Made by a program: the position numbers and the translations under genes. A DNA stretch of 46,405 nucleotides from a virus (taxonomy: Duplodnaviria > Heunggongvirae > Uroviricota > Caudoviricetes): the IMG/VR virus record IMGVR_UViG_2687453454_000004, one strand, 5' to 3'. The notes beneath the pieces were generated by a model. The model was not told the DNA's origin, did no database searches, and was given only the letters and a program-made list of their open reading frames with translations. Shown one piece after another: positions 1,668-8,400 of this stretch; the first letter of the stretch is position 1; each line of letters begins with the position of its first letter.

Positions 1668-2765
1668 ATGGCGTACTATAACATAGAGAAACGACTAAAA
1701 TCCGATGGCACACCACGCTATCGCTGTAATGTGATTATCAAAGAAAAAGGTGTTATCACTTACAGGGAAAGCAAAACATTCCCTAAACATGCTCATGCCA
1801 AAACATGGGGCGCACAGAAAGTGATGGAATTAGATCTATATGGCATTCCATCATCAAATGCTGTTGACGGACTTACAGTCCGTGACTTACTACACAAATA
1901 TTTAAATGACCCAAATGCCGGAGGTAAAGCAGGCCGTACTAAAAGATATGTGCTGGAACTGCTTATGGATAGTGACATCTCCGCGATCAAACTATCTGAA
2001 CTGACAGAAAATGACGTAATTGAACATTGCAGGCTAAGAAACAACGCTGGTGCAGGCCCAGCAACAGTCAGCCACGATGTTAGTTATCTTGGCAGTGTTC
2101 TGGATGCGGCAAAACCTGTATACGGAATCAATTACACATCAAACCCGGCGAAAAGCGCTCGTCCATATCTACTTAAACTCGGTTTGATTGGTAAATCAAA
2201 CCGTCGTAATCGTAGACCAGCATCTGATGAACTGAACATGCTCATTGAAGGCCTTCAACAACGATCTACTCATAAATGCTCAAAAATTCCGTTCGTTGAT
2301 ATCCTCAAATTTTCTGTGTGGTCCTGTATGCGAATCGGAGAAGTATGCCGGTTACGATGGGAAGATCTCGACCAGGAACAAAAATCTATACTAGTAAGAG
2401 ACAGGAAAGATCCACGTAAAAAGGAAGGCAACCATATGAAAGTTGCCTTGCTTGGGGAAGCCTGGGATATCGTCCAGCGACAACCCAAAAAATCAGAATT
2501 CATTTTTCCATATAACAGCACTTCTGTTACCGCAGGATTTCAGAGGGTAAGAAGCAAATTAGGTATTAAAGATCTGAGATACCATGATTTGCGTAGAGAA
2601 GGGGCAAGTCGCTTATTTGAGGCTGGTTTTAGTATTGAGGAAGTCGCTCAGGTTACAGGGCATCGTTCATTAAACGTGCTATGGCAGGTATATACCGAAC
2701 TGTATCCGAAATCTTTACATAATCGTTTTGAAGAACTCCAAAGGAGCAGAAATAAGACCTCTTGA
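1668..2765 (+). CDS. int: Tyrosine recombinase / phage integrase (dusA-targeting type)
   Basis: 365 aa; ATG with GAGG RBS; C-terminal catalytic motifs (MRIGEVCRLRWEDL, HDLRREGASRL, VTGHRSLNVLWQVYT); adjacent to and divergent from the dusA 5' end. Confidence 0.9.
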   Translation: MAYYNIEKRLKSDGTPRYRCNVIIKEKGVITYRESKTFPKHAHAKTWGAQKVMELDLYGIPSSNAVDGLTVRDLLHKYLNDPNAGGKAGRTKRYVLELLMDSDISAIKLSELTENDVIEHCRLRNNAGAGPATVSHDVSYLGSVLDAAKPVYGINYTSNPAKSARPYLLKLGLIGKSNRRNRRPASDELNMLIEGLQQRSTHKCSKIPFVDILKFSVWSCMRIGEVCRLRWEDLDQEQKSILVRDRKDPRKKEGNHMKVALLGEAWDIVQRQPKKSEFIFPYNSTSVTAGFQRVRSKLGIKDLRYHDLRREGASRLFEAGFSIEEVAQVTGHRSLNVLWQVYTELYPKSLHNRFEELQRSRNKTS

Positions 2766-2793
2766 CACTGTTTATCCATACAGTTAAAAATAA

Positions 2794-2813
2794 TACTGTA
2801 TACAAATACAGTG
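2794..2813 (+). promoter_or_regulatory. LexA (SOS) box upstream of the dinI-like gene
   Basis: tACTGTatacaaatACAGtg fits CTGT-N8-ACAG consensus exactly; 13 bp upstream of the ATG at 2826. Confidence 0.65.
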
Positions 2814-2825
2814 TAGGGGACTTTT

Positions 2826-3074
2826 ATGCGTATTGAAATCTGCATAGCCAAAGAAAAAATGACTAAAATGCCAACCGGTGCTGTGGATGCGTTAAAGGAA
2901 GAATTAACCCGACGCATCAGTAAACGTTATGACGATGTAGAAGTGATCGTAAAAGCCACCAGCAACGATGGCCTTTCTGTTACGCGCACCGCTGATAAAG
3001 ATTCAGCTAAAACTTTTGTTCAGGAGACTCTGAAAGATACCTGGGAGTCTGCTGACGAGTGGTTTGTTCATTAA
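2826..3074 (+). CDS. DinI-family DNA damage-inducible protein (prophage copy)
   Basis: 82 aa, MRIEICIAK...[11 protein letters not shown] resembles DinI/MsgA family; AGGGGA RBS; preceded by LexA box. Confidence 0.75.
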
Positions 3075-3105
3075 GTTCATCATCTCTGGACACCATTCAC
3101 TTGTA

Positions 3106-3135
3106 TTGACTTTAAGATCATTAAATTGTAATAAT
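3106..3135 (+). promoter_or_regulatory. Putative sigma70 promoter for the RT module
   Basis: TTGACT (3106-3111), 17-bp spacer, TG-extended TAATAA (3129-3134); predicted start about 3142, just before the structured leader. Confidence 0.35.
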
Positions 3136-3140
3136 TCAAA

Positions 3141-3275
3141 GGGATGGGGCAGGTTTTTCCTCTTGCGCATGCAAGGGCGGCTCTGATAATGAACAGTAAT
3201 ATTTTACTGTTGAGCTTATGCTCACTGATCCTGCCGGGCAGGATGTTCAACGGTTCCAATATATCCTGCCCCTTC
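3141..3275 (+). ncRNA. Candidate structured leader / ncRNA of the RT module
   Basis: 8-bp inverted repeats ggggcagg (3146-3153) and cctgcccc (3265-3272) flank about 110 nt containing four hairpins (3162-3175, 3193-3210, 3212-3223, perfect 17-bp palindrome 3228-3244); no ORF. Confidence 0.25.
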
Positions 3276-3296
3276 CGCTTTTAAAAAGGATCTTTT

Positions 3297-3848
3297 ATGC
3301 ATGACAATATTTGGTTTACATATAAAGCACGTATCCAAGCGCACCATCGACTAGAATGGCTTGAAAAACACTCTCAATTTATCCTCGTTTGGTATGCTAT
3401 ATTGAGTGCGGTACTTTCAATTGTAACGTTGCGATTTCCAAAGGTTCTAGGAGATAATACAGATGTCGTTGCGGCGATACTTTCAGTGGCTCTACTGGGT
3501 ATTTCTCTGATCGTATCTAACCTAGATTTTCGTGGTCGAGCAATAGCCATGAGAAGGAATTATATTGCACTACAGCGACTCTATTTTGACATTACCACCA
3601 GTCAACAGTTATCTCTTGAACAGAAAGAAAAATATTTTAATTTGCTCAATGAGGTTGAGAATCACCGTGACATAGATGATAAAATTTCAAGGGTAACTCA
3701 AGTTGGACTTAAGACGAGGATCCCCACACAAAAAGAAAAAATAATTGTTATTTTATGGATATTACTTCGAATATTTATTACTGCCGCACTTTATATACTC
3801 CCATTAATATATCTTTGGATTGACTATGACTGCAAGCAGAATTTTTAA
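3297..3848 (+). CDS. Multi-pass membrane protein, SLATT-like putative pore-forming effector
   Basis: 183 aa; AAGGA RBS; hydrophobic helices at about residues 27-46, 57-76 and 150-176 with a soluble middle segment; 3' end overlaps the RT start; AT-rich; SLATT assignment is an inference. Confidence 0.6.
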   Translation: MHDNIWFTYKARIQAHHRLEWLEKHSQFILVWYAILSAVLSIVTLRFPKVLGDNTDVVAAILSVALLGISLIVSNLDFRGRAIAMRRNYIALQRLYFDITTSQQLSLEQKEKYFNLLNEVENHRDIDDKISRVTQVGLKTRIPTQKEKIIVILWILLRIFITAALYILPLIYLWIDYDCKQNF

Positions 3849-5196
3849 AAAGTCATTCTCGAAAAAAAATCTTCTAAAAGTATACTCTGAAAAAATCAAA
3901 GAATCAGGAGCGATTGGCATAGATCGGATTCGCCCATCAAAACTTGATTTGACAATAAAAAATGAGATCACTTTCATTTTTGAAAAGGTTAATTCTGGCA
4001 ATTACAAATTTACAGCATATAAAGAAAAATTAATATCTAAAGGCGCTAACTCTACACCCAGACAGATTTCCATACCAACTGCTAGGGACAGAATTACTCT
4101 TAGAGCTCTCTGTGAATGCCTTACGGAAATATATCCTAAGTCCAGATTAAAACTACCACATACAGTAATTGACTCATTGAAAGAAGCATTAAACAACAGT
4201 CTATATGCTGAATATGCAAAAATAGATCTTAAAAGTTTCTATCCTTCAATTGAACATAAATTGATAATTAATGCAATAAAAAATAAAATTAGAAAAAAAG
4301 AAATTAGACAGTTAATAACATCATCATTAATCGTGCCTACTGTAAGTGGAACCACAGGAAGCAAAGGTATCCCTAATAATACCAGAGGAGTACCTCAGGG
4401 ATTAGCGATATCAAACATTTTAGCTGAAATATCACTATCTAATTTCGATGATGAAATCAATAAAATGCATGACATATGGTACATGCGATACGTTGATGAC
4501 ATTCTTATTTTAACACCAAAATATCAAGCAACAAAAATAGCTTCTCATATCATTGATAAGCTTCAATCATTAAATTTAAACCCACATCCATTAAATGAAG
4601 AGAACTCAAAATCCAAAGTAGGCAGCTTGGATGAAAGTTTCAACTTTTTGGGCTACCACATAAAAAATCGAGAATTATTGATAAAACATGAGAGCATTCT
4701 TAGATTTGAGTCATCCTTAGCAAAAATTTTTACTGCATATAGACACGCTCTACTACAAGCTAAAAATAAGCGCGATAAAGAACGAGCTGTTGCATATTGT
4801 CAGTGGAAACTAAATCTTAGAATTACGGGATGTGTGTTTGAAGGTAAACGATTGGGATGGGTATCGTACTTCTCACAAATAACGTCAACAGCTCAACTTC
4901 GAGCTGTTAATCATACGATCAATAATCTTATCCGCCGATTCGGCCTTTCATCAGAAATAAAACCAAAGTCTTTGATTAAAACTTTCTATGAACTCCGCAG
5001 GGGTAGAGCGGAGACTTTTAAATACATACCTAACTTTGACAATCTACATATATCTCAGAAACGAGAAATTGTTTCTATGTGGATAGGGAAAGAGAATGAA
5101 AAAAAACTTAGCAATAGTGAAATAGAGAGAAAATTTAAATTTAAAATTGCGAAATCAGTAAAAGAGCTTGAAGAGGACATTTCAGGGATATCATAG
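3820..5196 (+). CDS. Reverse transcriptase (unclassified: retron-like or UG/Abi-like)
   Basis: 458 aa (ORF track starts at TTG 3820; first ATG at 3826); RT motifs RQISIPTARDR, KIDLKSFYPSI, GVPQGLAISNILAEISL, YMRYVDDILIL (YVDD), FNFLGYHI; about 150-aa C-terminal extension. Confidence 0.9.
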   Translation: MTMTASRIFKKSFSKKNLLKVYSEKIKESGAIGIDRIRPSKLDLTIKNEITFIFEKVNSGNYKFTAYKEKLISKGANSTPRQISIPTARDRITLRALCECLTEIYPKSRLKLPHTVIDSLKEALNNSLYAEYAKIDLKSFYPSIEHKLIINAIKNKIRKKEIRQLITSSLIVPTVSGTTGSKGIPNNTRGVPQGLAISNILAEISLSNFDDEINKMHDIWYMRYVDDILILTPKYQATKIASHIIDKLQSLNLNPHPLNEENSKSKVGSLDESFNFLGYHIKNRELLIKHESILRFESSLAKIFTAYRHALLQAKNKRDKERAVAYCQWKLNLRITGCVFEGKRLGWVSYFSQITSTAQLRAVNHTINNLIRRFGLSSEIKPKSLIKTFYELRRGRAETFKYIPNFDNLHISQKREIVSMWIGKENEKKLSNSEIERKFKFKIAKSVKELEEDISGIS

Positions 5197-5308
5197 ATAT
5201 GTAATCCATTAAATCCTTTATATATAAAGCAATAAACACACTATTTAAATTCACAAATCAGCCGCAGTATCCTGCCATGACAAGTTGCTGCGGCATATCA
5301 CAAAACGA

Positions 5309-5491
5309 TTACTCCATAACAGGGACCGCAGGCCACTCAATATCAGGTGCAGTTGATGTATCAACACGGTTCAGCAACACCCGATACTTTTTCCAGGCTT
5401 CCAGCAATGAGGTTTCTTCCTCCGTTGCGATCTCCAGCTCAACAACAGTCTGAACGTACCGGGAACAGCCTCCTTCAGAGCTTGAAGGATA
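5309..5491 (-). pseudogene. 3' remnant of a tail fibre assembly gene (tfa)
   Basis: Start-less frame encodes ...[42 protein letters not shown], matching the conserved Tfa C-terminus from memory; in frame directly after the stf stop codon. Confidence 0.65.
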
Positions 5492-8400
5492 TCAATGTTC
5501 GCTTCCTGTTAACTGCCGGACAAGTGCAACCAGTTCGCTTACCTGATTTTCCAGAGTGCTGATCCGGGTGTCTGCTGTTGCCAGATTTTGACGTAGCGTT
5601 GTGTTTTCCTCTTCCAGCGCGGTAACGCGATCATCTGTTTCACGGGCGACCTGGACAAGTAAACCAGTCACCGCCGCATAATCAACATTGAGGTAACGCG
5701 TTTCTTCGCGTAGCTCGTTGCCATCAATGGTCGGACCCTGCAATTCTTCACCGTAACGAGTAAACGATCCTACGGCTTCCGGTAGCGCCTCCATTACTTC
5801 CTGTGCAATAACGCCAGCATAAGGAAGGCCGTTTTCCTTGAGCGTGTAGGTGTACCCGTTCATTTTGCGGATTGCTTTCGTCGCGTCGCTGATAACGAGA
5901 ATATCGTCTTTAAGGTCGCGGTCTGATGACTGATTCAGCGTTGTGCAATTAATAGCGCCATTTACATCAAACAACTGGCCTGCTGGCGTTCTTTGCGCAT
6001 AAAACAGATACGCAGCAGACGTTCCAACCTCAAAAACGTTTTGTCGATCACTTGAACCCCATACACTGATGTTAAACGGTAGTTCTGCATTACCTGCGTT
6101 CTTTAAAACAAAACGATTGCCAGTCCCTGACTGTTTTCTAATTACTAAATCAGCAGTTGAGTTAACCTCATCTTTGTTGATGGTTAGCGCCTGTGCTGTA
6201 GCACCGTTGACAGTACCGCTTAGTAGTTGCACCGCGCCATCATCGCCATTTAACAGCACTTGAGCGCTGCTTCTGTGGTTTTTAAGGCACAACATTTTTC
6301 CCGTGTTTTCCGATGTACCTACTGACCACGCCGAATTGGTTCCAGTGCTATCAACACCGCGCACAGCACAATTCATACTACTGTAATCTGACGTACTCCC
6401 CAGCACATCAACACGCCCGCCGCCTAATTTTGATGGAGTCGTCGAGGTTAACGACCTGACGGTCACATCCTGATTCCATCCTGAAACAACATGCTCGCTC
6501 CATGCTGTCCAATTACCATTAGTAACAAAACGAACATGCACGCGTCCTTTGTCGCCGCTAATCAGCGTTTGCATGTTTATATAATCTGAATCACTAACCT
6601 TACGAATTGACTCTACACGAAGCAAAAAGTTGCCGCCTACGCCGTCAGGCTTATTGGTAATATTCGAACCGCCTCCGGCAGTTTTGCAGTGATAGTATTT
6701 AACTGAACCTTTATCCGTGAACTTAATGATAAGGTCATTAAGATCGATAGTCATGCCTTCAATGGCTTCCGGCTCGATAGGCCCAGACATACCTGCGTTA
6801 AATGTGGCAAGGTCAGAAAATGTTGTTTTGCCGCCTACCGTTACCCCGCTATCGAGTATTGCTTGTGTAATTACTTTGCTGTTTTTTGTGTGGTCAGAAT
6901 AACCACCAAAATACAAATCACCGTCACCGTATATGCCGAGATATTTTTGGTCAACGTCATCAACCTTAAACCCAATGGATAAATTTTTAATTGTGTTGTT
7001 GCGCGTTAAAACCAGAGGAGTATGCTGAGATCCTTTTATGCTTACCGTAGTATCATCGGATCTAGTGCTTGTGTTTGCAAATTCTGCTTTTGCGCCTTTA
7101 GTTTTACCCGCTAATGTGAGATCACGGGCTTCAACCATCCCGTCGTGACGAACAATAAAATCACCACTTGATTGACCTTTTGCGTTTTTAGCCCTGATGT
7201 GAACTTCGCCAAGCGTATCAGTATTTGTAGGCGCAAAAATAACGCCGCGTTCCGACTGATCCTCATTTTGGAACCATACATGGGCGGTTCCACTTTTTGA
7301 ACGCAGGAATAGTGAAGGTGTTGCTTTAGTGATCGACAGATTACCTGACATAATGTCGCCGGATTTTTTCACCTGCGCATCGTTAGTTACGTTACCAAGT
7401 CCAACATCCGATTTCGACGGCTTGTATTTGGTTCCGTATAGCTCATTTATGTTAAAAGTACCATTGTTGAGTCTATTATCGTTACTAGAGTAAATCTTTA
7501 CTCTACCGCTTTCGTAATCGATATTAATAGCTGACCACGTATCGCCGCACCGCGAGAATATACCAGAACCGTGGCTGAAAATTGTTGATTCGCTACCTGT
7601 TGGTTTTCCTGACCTCCAGAAACACCCACCTTTCGCCCTTAGCTCTTGTAGTAGTTCCTTATCGGTCATTTTACCATCCAAAACAAGACCGCTACCGCCA
7701 AGACCAAAAGCGCCTATAAGCATAGCATTAGAAAGGCCCAAATCTGCTTTAGTCGGCTTGTTTACCTGGTCGTAAATCCTTACAACGTTGCCTTCAATAT
7801 ATCCAGAAGGCGCGGCGGTTTGCTTAACAAATCCGTCTGGAATGTATAATTCTGTGTTTAGTGTTGTCTGCGCCAGCACCGCAACCTTTGCGTCGTTAAT
7901 AAACGCACCCTGGAATGCCCAAACCTCAATAAAGCCGTCACCTTTAACCAGGCCGTAACGCATCTGGTTGTTATCGGTCAGCCCGGTTGACCCTAAGCGG
8001 CGTATACTCAGATGACGAGAAACATTATCCGCACTAAGCAAAGAAGGCAGACCGCGCGCCGAGATCTCGATAAAGTCAATGTTTCCGTAAGGGGAGCCGT
8101 AGTTACCAGCGTTAGTAACCATTAGCGTTACATGACTTCTGCTGGTTCCAGGATCGGAAAGTTTCGCGATCTTGATGTAAAGAGACTCACTAGCAGTAAC
8201 AACAGGCCAATCGTATTGCGTCATCGGGCTGACGAGTCCCCCGACCTTGTCGAGATATTCTTTCGCCTTGTTCTCTGACGCTTTAGCGTTGGTTTCGCTG
8301 ACCTTTGCTGCTGACTCACTATTTTTCGCGTTGGTTTCTGATTTTTTGGCTGCTGTCGCGGAGTTTGCCGATGCAGTTTGTGAGTCTGCTGCCGCCTGTG

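Follow-up and report, generated by a model that had tools for sequence, protein, structure and literature searches.

The window analysed in this study, i.e., the whole 46,405-nt stretch of DNA, is a lambdoid prophage integrated at dusA, and an E. coli O25b:H4 prophage is broadly collinear with it. From its left end it carries dusA, a tyrosine integrase gene, dinI, a DRT10 cassette, and tail-fibre genes. The DinI-family gene (2826-3074) is separated by 222 bp from the next open reading frame, and this gap houses a promoter and a structured leader. A preliminary description of the sequence had placed the leader beside an RT operon, which is correct, but it overlooked that the gene directly downstream encodes a SLATT effector and that the RT gene comes second. 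The promoter and the two genes are as follows:

3106-3135, + strand: predicted sigma-70-type promoter (TTGACT, 17/18-nt spacer, TG-TAATAAT)
3297-3848, + strand: gene for a SLATT_5 two-transmembrane effector, 183 aa (Pfam, PADLOC, NCBIfam)
3826-5196, + strand: gene for a UG17 (DRT10) RT, 456 aa from the ATG at 3826 (PADLOC RT_UG17; identity to OKX54664.1)

The effector was recognized as SLATT_5 by Pfam (E = 1.3e-28), as RTasSLATT by PADLOC (E = 1.5e-56), and by NCBIfam at 136 bits against a cut-off of 60. The RT matched PADLOC's RT_UG17 profile at 527 bits (E = 1.1e-158), with residues 3-458 of a 458-aa open reading frame aligned to profile positions 1-429. This frame opens at TTG 3820, while RefSeq relatives start at ATG 3826 (456 aa), and Tang et al. 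noted that the annotated start of OKX54664 adds two residues, its S458 being their S456 (10.1101/2025.10.16.682844). With ATG 3826 as the start, therefore, the last residue of the window RT is S456, the published priming serine. The RT gene overlaps the SLATT gene by 23 nt (SLATT stop, 3848; RT ATG, 3826). The window RT carries YVDD at residues 222-225 as well as R371, K385, Y388, and the C-terminal S456; R371, K385, and Y388 were invariant in 12 homologues, the window RT among them, down to 59% identity, and S456 was at least 90% conserved. A PDB sequence search with the RT returned only distant RTs (group II intron, Drt3a, and Drt2) and no DRT10 entry. UG17 and SLATT together constitute DRT10, a tripartite module of ncRNA, SLATT, and RT (10.1101/2025.10.16.682844; 10.64898/2026.04.29.721553; 10.64898/2026.06.29.735271), and close homologues of both proteins are marked "ncRNA associated = TRUE" in the supplementary tables of Tang et al. 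(10.1101/2025.10.16.682844).

As a dinI-linked defence moron, the DRT10 cassette occupies the integrase end of the dusA-integrated lambdoid prophage. When window 1668-3074 was compared with loci L001-L004, the dinI-ncRNA-SLATT-RT cassette was seen in two settings. In the first (window 1668-3074), it sits beside a dusA-specific integrase (window, AR434, and O25b:H4); in the second, it lies directly beside prfC, without an integrase, and dinI is frameshifted in some strains. A search of phage records with the cassette, at megablast sensitivity, matched only dinI, the SLATT-RT module being absent from deposited phage genomes. Elsewhere in the prophage, the interval from the RT stop to the tail-fibre gene holds an Rfam IS009-like match (5352-5552, - strand; 95.3 bits, E = 3e-21, below the gathering threshold of 117), and the stretch 5197-5500, which overlaps this match at 5352-5500, matches DNA annotated elsewhere as a tail fibre assembly protein or fragment. 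In the prophage early region, C4 antisense RNA (38395-38482, - strand; 82.8 bits, gathering threshold 45) adjoins isrK (38507-38583, - strand; 59 bits, gathering threshold 50), and the two look like the usual anti-repressor control pair of lambdoid or P1-like prophages. Near the far end, collinearity with the annotated O25b:H4 prophage points to a candidate gene for a Panacea domain, a toxin-antitoxin-associated domain (~44405-44977, - strand). The right end of the window (45100-46405) matches a DUF2713 gene and a dihydrouridine-synthase fragment, and it is consistent with the attR side of an element integrated at dusA whose insertion duplicates or replaces the 5' end of dusA; over its last ~1.1 kb (45248-46405), no segment of 300 bp or more matched the compared part of O25b:H4.

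The leader itself consists of the following parts, numbered by reference to the ncRNA of Eco_3_DRT10:

3142-3278, + strand: putative DRT10 ncRNA, 137 nt, with boundaries transferred from the RIP-seq-defined Eco_3_DRT10 ncRNA (nt n = window 3141+n)
3142-3153, + strand: SL1 basal stem, 5' strand GGAUGGGGCAGG, with its partner at 3265-3276; 75% GC
3154-3157, + strand: UUUU spacer of 4 nt between SL1 and SL2
3158-3180, + strand: SL2, with three covarying pairs and two invariant U-G pairs
3181-3191, + strand: Loop A CUCUGAUAAUG, with G44 at 3185, mapped from 10.64898/2026.06.29.735271
3192-3211, + strand: SL3 AACAGUAA/UUACUGUU, with three covarying pairs; 25% GC
3212-3223, + strand: SL4, GAGC-UUAU-GCUC (fold), with two covarying pairs
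3228-3244, + strand: SL5, the 17-nt palindrome AUCCUGCC-G-GGCAGGAU (fold, inverted repeat, and covariation analysis)
3248-3256, + strand: putative template A-B CAACGGUUC, nt 107-115 (alignment with Eco_3)
3257-3260, + strand: putative A' realignment site CAAU, nt 116-119 (published landmarks)
3261-3264, + strand: 3' linker AUAU, after A'
3265-3276, + strand: SL1 basal stem, 3' strand CCUGCCCCUUCC, with GC and then a U-run (3279-3282) after it
3185, 3227, 3245, and 3246-3247, + strand: Eco_3 landmarks G44, G86, G104, and U105-U106, at offset 3141
3248, 3251, and 3257/3258, + strand: Eco_3 landmarks C107, the U110 position, and C116/A117, at offset 3141
3260 and 3261-3264, + strand: Eco_3 landmarks U119 and A120-U123, at offset 3141

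OKX54664 was named as the Eco_3_DRT10 RT by Tang et al. (10.1101/2025.10.16.682844), and an exact-sequence look-up traced OKX54664.1 to the E. coli IHE3034 RT, of which it is the 458-aa form; it agrees with the IHE3034 gene at 456/456 residues. The window RT is identical to OKX54664.1 at 446 of 456 residues (97.8%), the SLATT proteins of the window and Eco_3 differ at 4 of 183 residues, and window 3076-3296 (221 nt) shares 98.2% identity with the intergenic region of IHE3034. This region of IHE3034 contains GTTCAATGATTCCAATATAT, in which CAAU lies downstream of the published Eco_3 template, CAAUGAUUC, and the measured Eco_3 cDNA motif, GAATCATTG, is the reverse complement of that template (10.1101/2025.10.16.682844). 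With a single offset (n = window 3141+n), all of the nucleotides that the papers name fall on matching bases. Since these landmarks all agree at one offset, the RIP-seq-defined 137-nt RNA would correspond to window 3142-3278. The GC contents of SL1 (75%) and SL3 (25%) and the 4-nt spacer between SL1 and SL2 also agree with the published description of Eco_3. We are thus highly confident, judging from sequence, that 3142-3278 (+) encodes the ncRNA of the DRT10 anti-phage system and is a natural allele of the Eco_3_DRT10 ncRNA. The 5' and 3' ends, the repeat sequence, and the defence activity that we ascribe to the window allele are extrapolated from this 98%-identical system. Searches of Rfam 15 over 3100-3300 gave no match at E <= 1 or at gathering thresholds, no family covered the element when the whole window was searched, and no annotated feature lay under the ncRNA in the 40 E. 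coli genomes listed of 187 carriers (RefSeq). As the ncRNA is unannotated in RefSeq and without an Rfam family, genome scans can be expected to keep rediscovering the element.

The preliminary description had reported an 8-bp inverted repeat (ggggcagg/cctgcccc) enclosing four hairpins, one of them a 17-nt palindrome at 3228-3244. The repeat is real and extends to 12 nt with 92% complementarity (3142-3153/3265-3276), and the fold and an inverted-repeat search placed all four hairpins, the palindrome included, where they had been described; the base of SL5 is flanked by G3227 (G86) and G3245 (G104). Among 200 dinucleotide shuffles, at -42.9 +/- 3.6 kcal/mol, none folded as well as the + strand, at -59 kcal/mol (z = -4.54). 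Since the reverse strand gave a fold of similar quality (z = -4.65), the strand was set by the invariant U-G pairs and by covariance-model hits, which fell on the + strand only. The comparison across homologous loci that had been suggested along with the hairpins was based on 44 UG17 loci gathered from one genome per species, in which the SLATT N-terminus was located and the upstream 190 nt folded. The architecture was shared by Xenorhabdus, Photorhabdus, Buttiauxella, Pseudomonas, Stutzerimonas, Stenotrophomonas, Bordetella, and one proteobacterial MAG. The covariation alignment comprised 25 sequences, one from each of 25 loci in eight genera, and its consensus held 35 pairs in five helices, 18 of which had changes on both sides. 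Consensus pairs were paired in 97.1% of cases, vs. 48-55% when partners were slid by 1-3 columns, and not one of 500 shuffles reached the observed covariation score, number of compensatory pairs, or percentage paired. In the SL1 basal stem, 9 of the 11 consensus pairs were compensatory. The Loop A region, GGCGGYUCUGAUAAU, was nearly invariant across genera.

A covariance model built from the 25-sequence alignment gave one + strand match directly upstream of SLATT in 28/28 gamma/beta-proteobacterial loci (108-152 bits) and a single match in the window, at 3139-3284 on the + strand (128.5 bits, E = 2e-28). It found no match in alpha-proteobacterial UG17 loci (RT identity 31-34%), in agreement with the published finding that ncRNA models are confined to single subtypes (10.64898/2026.04.29.721553). 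The proposal, made from sequence alone, that the leader is a discrete, structured ncRNA with its own promoter and part of the RT module was right. A rival reading takes the hairpins as DNA-level palindromes, i.e., a recombinase or repressor site or a REP-like element near the prophage end, or the region as a minus-strand open reading frame (3080-3259, 59 aa). The element does lie ~300 bp from the integrase-dinI block at the dusA attachment end, the reverse strand folds as well as the forward strand, and minus-strand open reading frames exist. However, the element travels with SLATT-RT in non-prophage contexts and different integration contexts across eight genera, its substitutions preserve RNA pairs, including G-U, and the model matches the + strand only; read from the opposite strand, the two invariant U-G pairs of SL2 and numerous G-U intermediates would turn into A-C mismatches. 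In addition, the systems of Tang et al. defended as before when the tyrosine recombinase was deleted (10.1101/2025.10.16.682844). We therefore regard this reading as having a vanishingly small probability, and both the DNA palindrome and the minus-strand small open reading frames were rejected on account of covariation, G-U pairs, and strand-specific model matches.

In the preferred reading, the RNA is the DRT10 ncRNA and carries the template. Published work shows that RT and ncRNA alone, when supplied with dNTPs in vitro, suffice to make protein-primed, kilobase tandem-repeat DNA (10.1101/2025.10.16.682844; 10.64898/2026.06.29.735271). In Eco_3, synthesis is primed from the C-terminal serine, S456, and a 9-nt loop segment is copied repeatedly (10.1101/2025.10.16.682844; 10.64898/2026.06.29.735271). 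The template is the A-B portion of an A-B-A' pattern in the loop after SL5, and the 3' end of the cDNA re-anneals to A' after each copy (10.1101/2025.10.16.682844). The 5' boundary of the template is set geometrically by the SL5 anchor (G104-R371) and its 3' side by contacts of SL1 with K385 and Y388 (10.64898/2026.06.29.735271). SL5 of the window would likewise be the 5' template-boundary element, a role that comes from experiments on Eco_3 with SL5 truncation and R371A (10.64898/2026.06.29.735271). Two RT monomers bind each pseudo-symmetric RNA, and Loop A yields only short, abortive products (10.64898/2026.06.29.735271). By homology, Loop A of the window would be a second, non-repetitive template loop that is bound by the second RT monomer. 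A direct repeat, GGGCAGGUUUUUC / GGGCAGGAUGUUC, is present at 3147-3159 and 3236-3248, where the 5' strand of SL1 plus the spacer mirrors the 3' strand of SL5 plus the linker; here the sequence itself bears the mark of the pseudo-symmetry that Ramirez et al. described for the two halves of the ncRNA (10.64898/2026.06.29.735271).

The A-B-A' pattern is conserved in the homologous loci. A search anchored 3 nt after SL5 found it in 26/27 loci with a period of 9-11, and CAA recurred 9-11 nt past the first CAA in 25/27. The same rule recovered the measured Eco_3 motif, GAATCATTG, from IHE3034. The sole homologue without A-B-A' at the expected offset after SL5 was that of Pseudomonas crudilactis (locus L008, 1810-1952; loop CACACUUUCUCUAAUCU). 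In the window, the pattern begins 3 nt after SL5 and reads CAA(C)-GGUUC-CAA(U), so that A and A' are CAAC and CAAU and are unlike at the fourth base.

The resemblance to retrons that had initially been proposed must be considered here. If the leader were a retron msr-msd RNA, its terminal inverted repeats would be a1/a2, priming would be from the 2'-OH of a branching G, and the product would be single-copy msDNA. A terminal inverted repeat does enclose stem-loops beside an RT gene, and some database records label homologues "retron-type reverse transcriptase." However, after UG17 the second PADLOC family for the RT was Drt3a (130 bits), and NCBIfam's retron_St85_RT scored 58.4 bits, below its cut-off of 235. 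Furthermore, the effector is a SLATT protein, the gene order is ncRNA-SLATT-RT, and the Eco_3 RNA, which is of the identical class, templates protein-primed 9-nt tandem repeats and not 2'-5' branched msDNA. A retron RNA is therefore extremely unlikely. What held of the initial proposal was an ncRNA of the RT module with paired 5' and 3' ends, a multi-hairpin domain, and a template role; the likeness to msr-msd did not hold.

We also examined how the DRT10 ncRNA and the genes behind it might be expressed. The promoter noticed in the preliminary description is present: TTGACT (3106-3111) is followed by an 18-nt spacer and AATAAT (3130-3135) with TG upstream, matching the consensus at 10 of 12 positions, and a 17-nt spacer with TAATAA is an equivalent reading. 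Promoter-like sites of such quality are not rarer in the region than chance predicts (13 found vs. 11.1 expected), so the match by itself required comparative support, which was supplied by positional conservation in homologous loci. Nearly all of 26 homologous loci have a -10-like hexamer (TAGAAT, TAAGAT, TATAAT, and similar) that precedes the basal stem by 5-8 nt, those of enterobacteria retain the -35 (TTGACT/TTGATT), and 3106-3135 is invariant in five E. coli alleles. The ncRNA would start 7 nt past the -10 hexamer and end just before the U-run (3279-3282). Thus, 3106-3135 is predicted to drive the ncRNA, and a native promoter was used for the related UG17-A ncRNA (10.64898/2026.04.29.721553). 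It is probably the promoter of the whole ncRNA-SLATT-RT transcript as well. Only 18 nt (3279-3296) separate the inferred 3' end of the RNA from the SLATT ATG, and no promoter-like site was found on the + strand between 3136 and 3296. Since the gap is short, lacks a promoter-like site, and begins with a U-run, the SLATT-RT mRNA probably reads through the element, and the two genes are probably co-transcribed with the ncRNA by such read-through.

The same observations would suit a 5' leader that acts purely in cis, like an attenuator or riboswitch, to regulate translation or transcription of SLATT-RT and has no template role. Against this, the Eco_3 RNA is a discrete 137-nt species that is bound by the RT and suffices, with RT and dNTPs, for synthesis in vitro, and the related UG17-A ncRNA accumulates in trans from its native promoter (10.64898/2026.04.29.721553). 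Moreover, an attenuator would leave the conserved A-B-A' pattern unexplained. A purely cis-acting leader is therefore very unlikely, yet the "leader" aspect may be partly valid, given the probable read-through into SLATT-RT, and the DRT10 ncRNA may also have a regulatory side-role.

Taking the mechanism from the published work, the window cassette would operate as follows. The ncRNA would be transcribed from 3106-3135, and SL1 would close a domain of SL2-SL5 and two single-stranded loops. Two RT monomers would assemble on the pseudo-symmetric RNA, and the monomer at Loop B, by homology to Eco_3, would prime from the hydroxyl of its own S456. It would then copy the 9-nt segment CAACGGUUC (3248-3256) until the SL5 anchor (G104-R371) halts it at C107 (3248). 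The 3' end of the nascent strand, ...GTTG, would unpair and re-anneal to CAAU (3257-3260), and in the window allele the fourth position of this pairing would be a G-U wobble. Repeated cycles would yield kilobase-length, single-stranded DNA made of GAACCGTTG repeats. This cDNA, the level of which host ExoI/SbcB and phage SSB-like proteins modulate in a related system, would control the SLATT membrane effector and thereby abort infection. SLATT is required for defence (10.1101/2025.10.16.682844), and in the related system it is SbcB and a phage SSB-like protein that control the amount of cDNA (10.64898/2026.04.29.721553). The papers conflict as to whether cDNA rises or falls on infection.

The template of the window, CAACGGUUC, differs from that of Eco_3, CAAUGAUUC, by U110C (3251) and A112G (3253), and the predicted cDNA repeat is 5'-GAACCGTTG-3' instead of the GAATCATTG of Eco_3. 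Tang et al. found that U110A was tolerated, that repeats followed the altered template, and that the B segment was freely mutable (10.1101/2025.10.16.682844). Considering these results, in which the substitution at this position was U110A and not U110C, the window template would be expected to function. To determine how common each allele is, we searched complete E. coli genomes with exact 40-nt words. The window allele was present in 153 genomes and the Eco_3 allele in 34, i.e., the former was ~4.5 times commoner, and the two accounted for all 187 carriers among 5426 genomes. The template of Xenorhabdus santafensis is the same as that of the window. Hence, the laboratory Eco_3 template is the minority allele, and the window's CAACGGUUC predicts a different repeat product. 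We think it unlikely, however, that U110C/A112G is more than a neutral variant, i.e., that template polymorphism tunes the sequence or fidelity of the product, the threshold of SLATT activation, or phage evasion.

Together, U110C and A112G also create a perfect GUUC...GUUC repeat at an 8-nt offset (3245-3248/3253-3256), where Eco_3 has GUUC...AUUC; this repeat overlaps G104, the 5' linker, and the template. Were the RT sometimes to read past the SL5 boundary, an alternative 8-nt register (CGTTGAAC) or mixed-register products could result. We set this register (GUUC-AACG-GUUC) aside, as the papers define the boundary by its geometric distance from SL5 and place the stop at C107, leaving G104 and U105-U106 untemplated. 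Since the 8-nt register needs read-through into this untemplated linker, the 9-nt register is far more likely.

Several known systems can be compared with the window cassette. Retron msr-msd RNAs are similar in that a structured ncRNA with paired 5' and 3' ends lies beside an RT gene and belongs to a defence system with an effector, but they differ in RT clade, priming chemistry, product, and template length. The authors of the DRT10 papers have drawn the likeness to telomerase RNA (TER) and TERT, which share with DRT10 a short internal template, a downstream realignment sequence, a helix as template boundary, and repeat-addition processivity. In contrast to TER/TERT, however, DRT10 is bacterial, serves in defence, forms a complex of RT and RNA at 2:1, and is primed by protein, not by a chromosome end. 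DRT9 (UG28) and DRT2 (UG2), too, are Class 2 UG RTs whose internal template for repetitive cDNA is provided by a structured ncRNA lying upstream, and the DRT10 papers state that the fold of the DRT9 ncRNA resembles that of DRT10. Nonetheless, DRT9 makes poly-dA from a U-tract, while DRT2 copies ~120 nt by rolling-circle synthesis to build a gene, and neither has a SLATT partner of the DRT10 kind.

Within the ncRNA-SLATT-RT class itself, the UG17-A ncRNA described from Escherichia sp. E3659 also has a promoter of its own and produces tandem-repeat cDNA, and its basal SL1 is essential for RNA stability (10.64898/2026.04.29.721553). It differs in having ~143 nt, six predicted stem-loops, and a 7-nt repeat, and by this description it is set apart as a separate sequence lineage. 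Eco_3_DRT10, finally, has the same 137-nt architecture (SL1-SL5, Loop A, and Loop B), gene order, promoter, and SLATT/RT overlap as the window, and all of the named contact nucleotides and RT residues are identical. The differences are three substitutions within the 137-nt RNA, i.e., U110C, A112G, and one in SL2 (C3166 vs. U), and the location of the cassette, which in the window is in a dusA-integrated lambdoid prophage and in IHE3034 is in a prfC-dinI context. The system was already described in 2025-2026, and the window, as a natural allele of it, leaves the understanding of that system unchanged.
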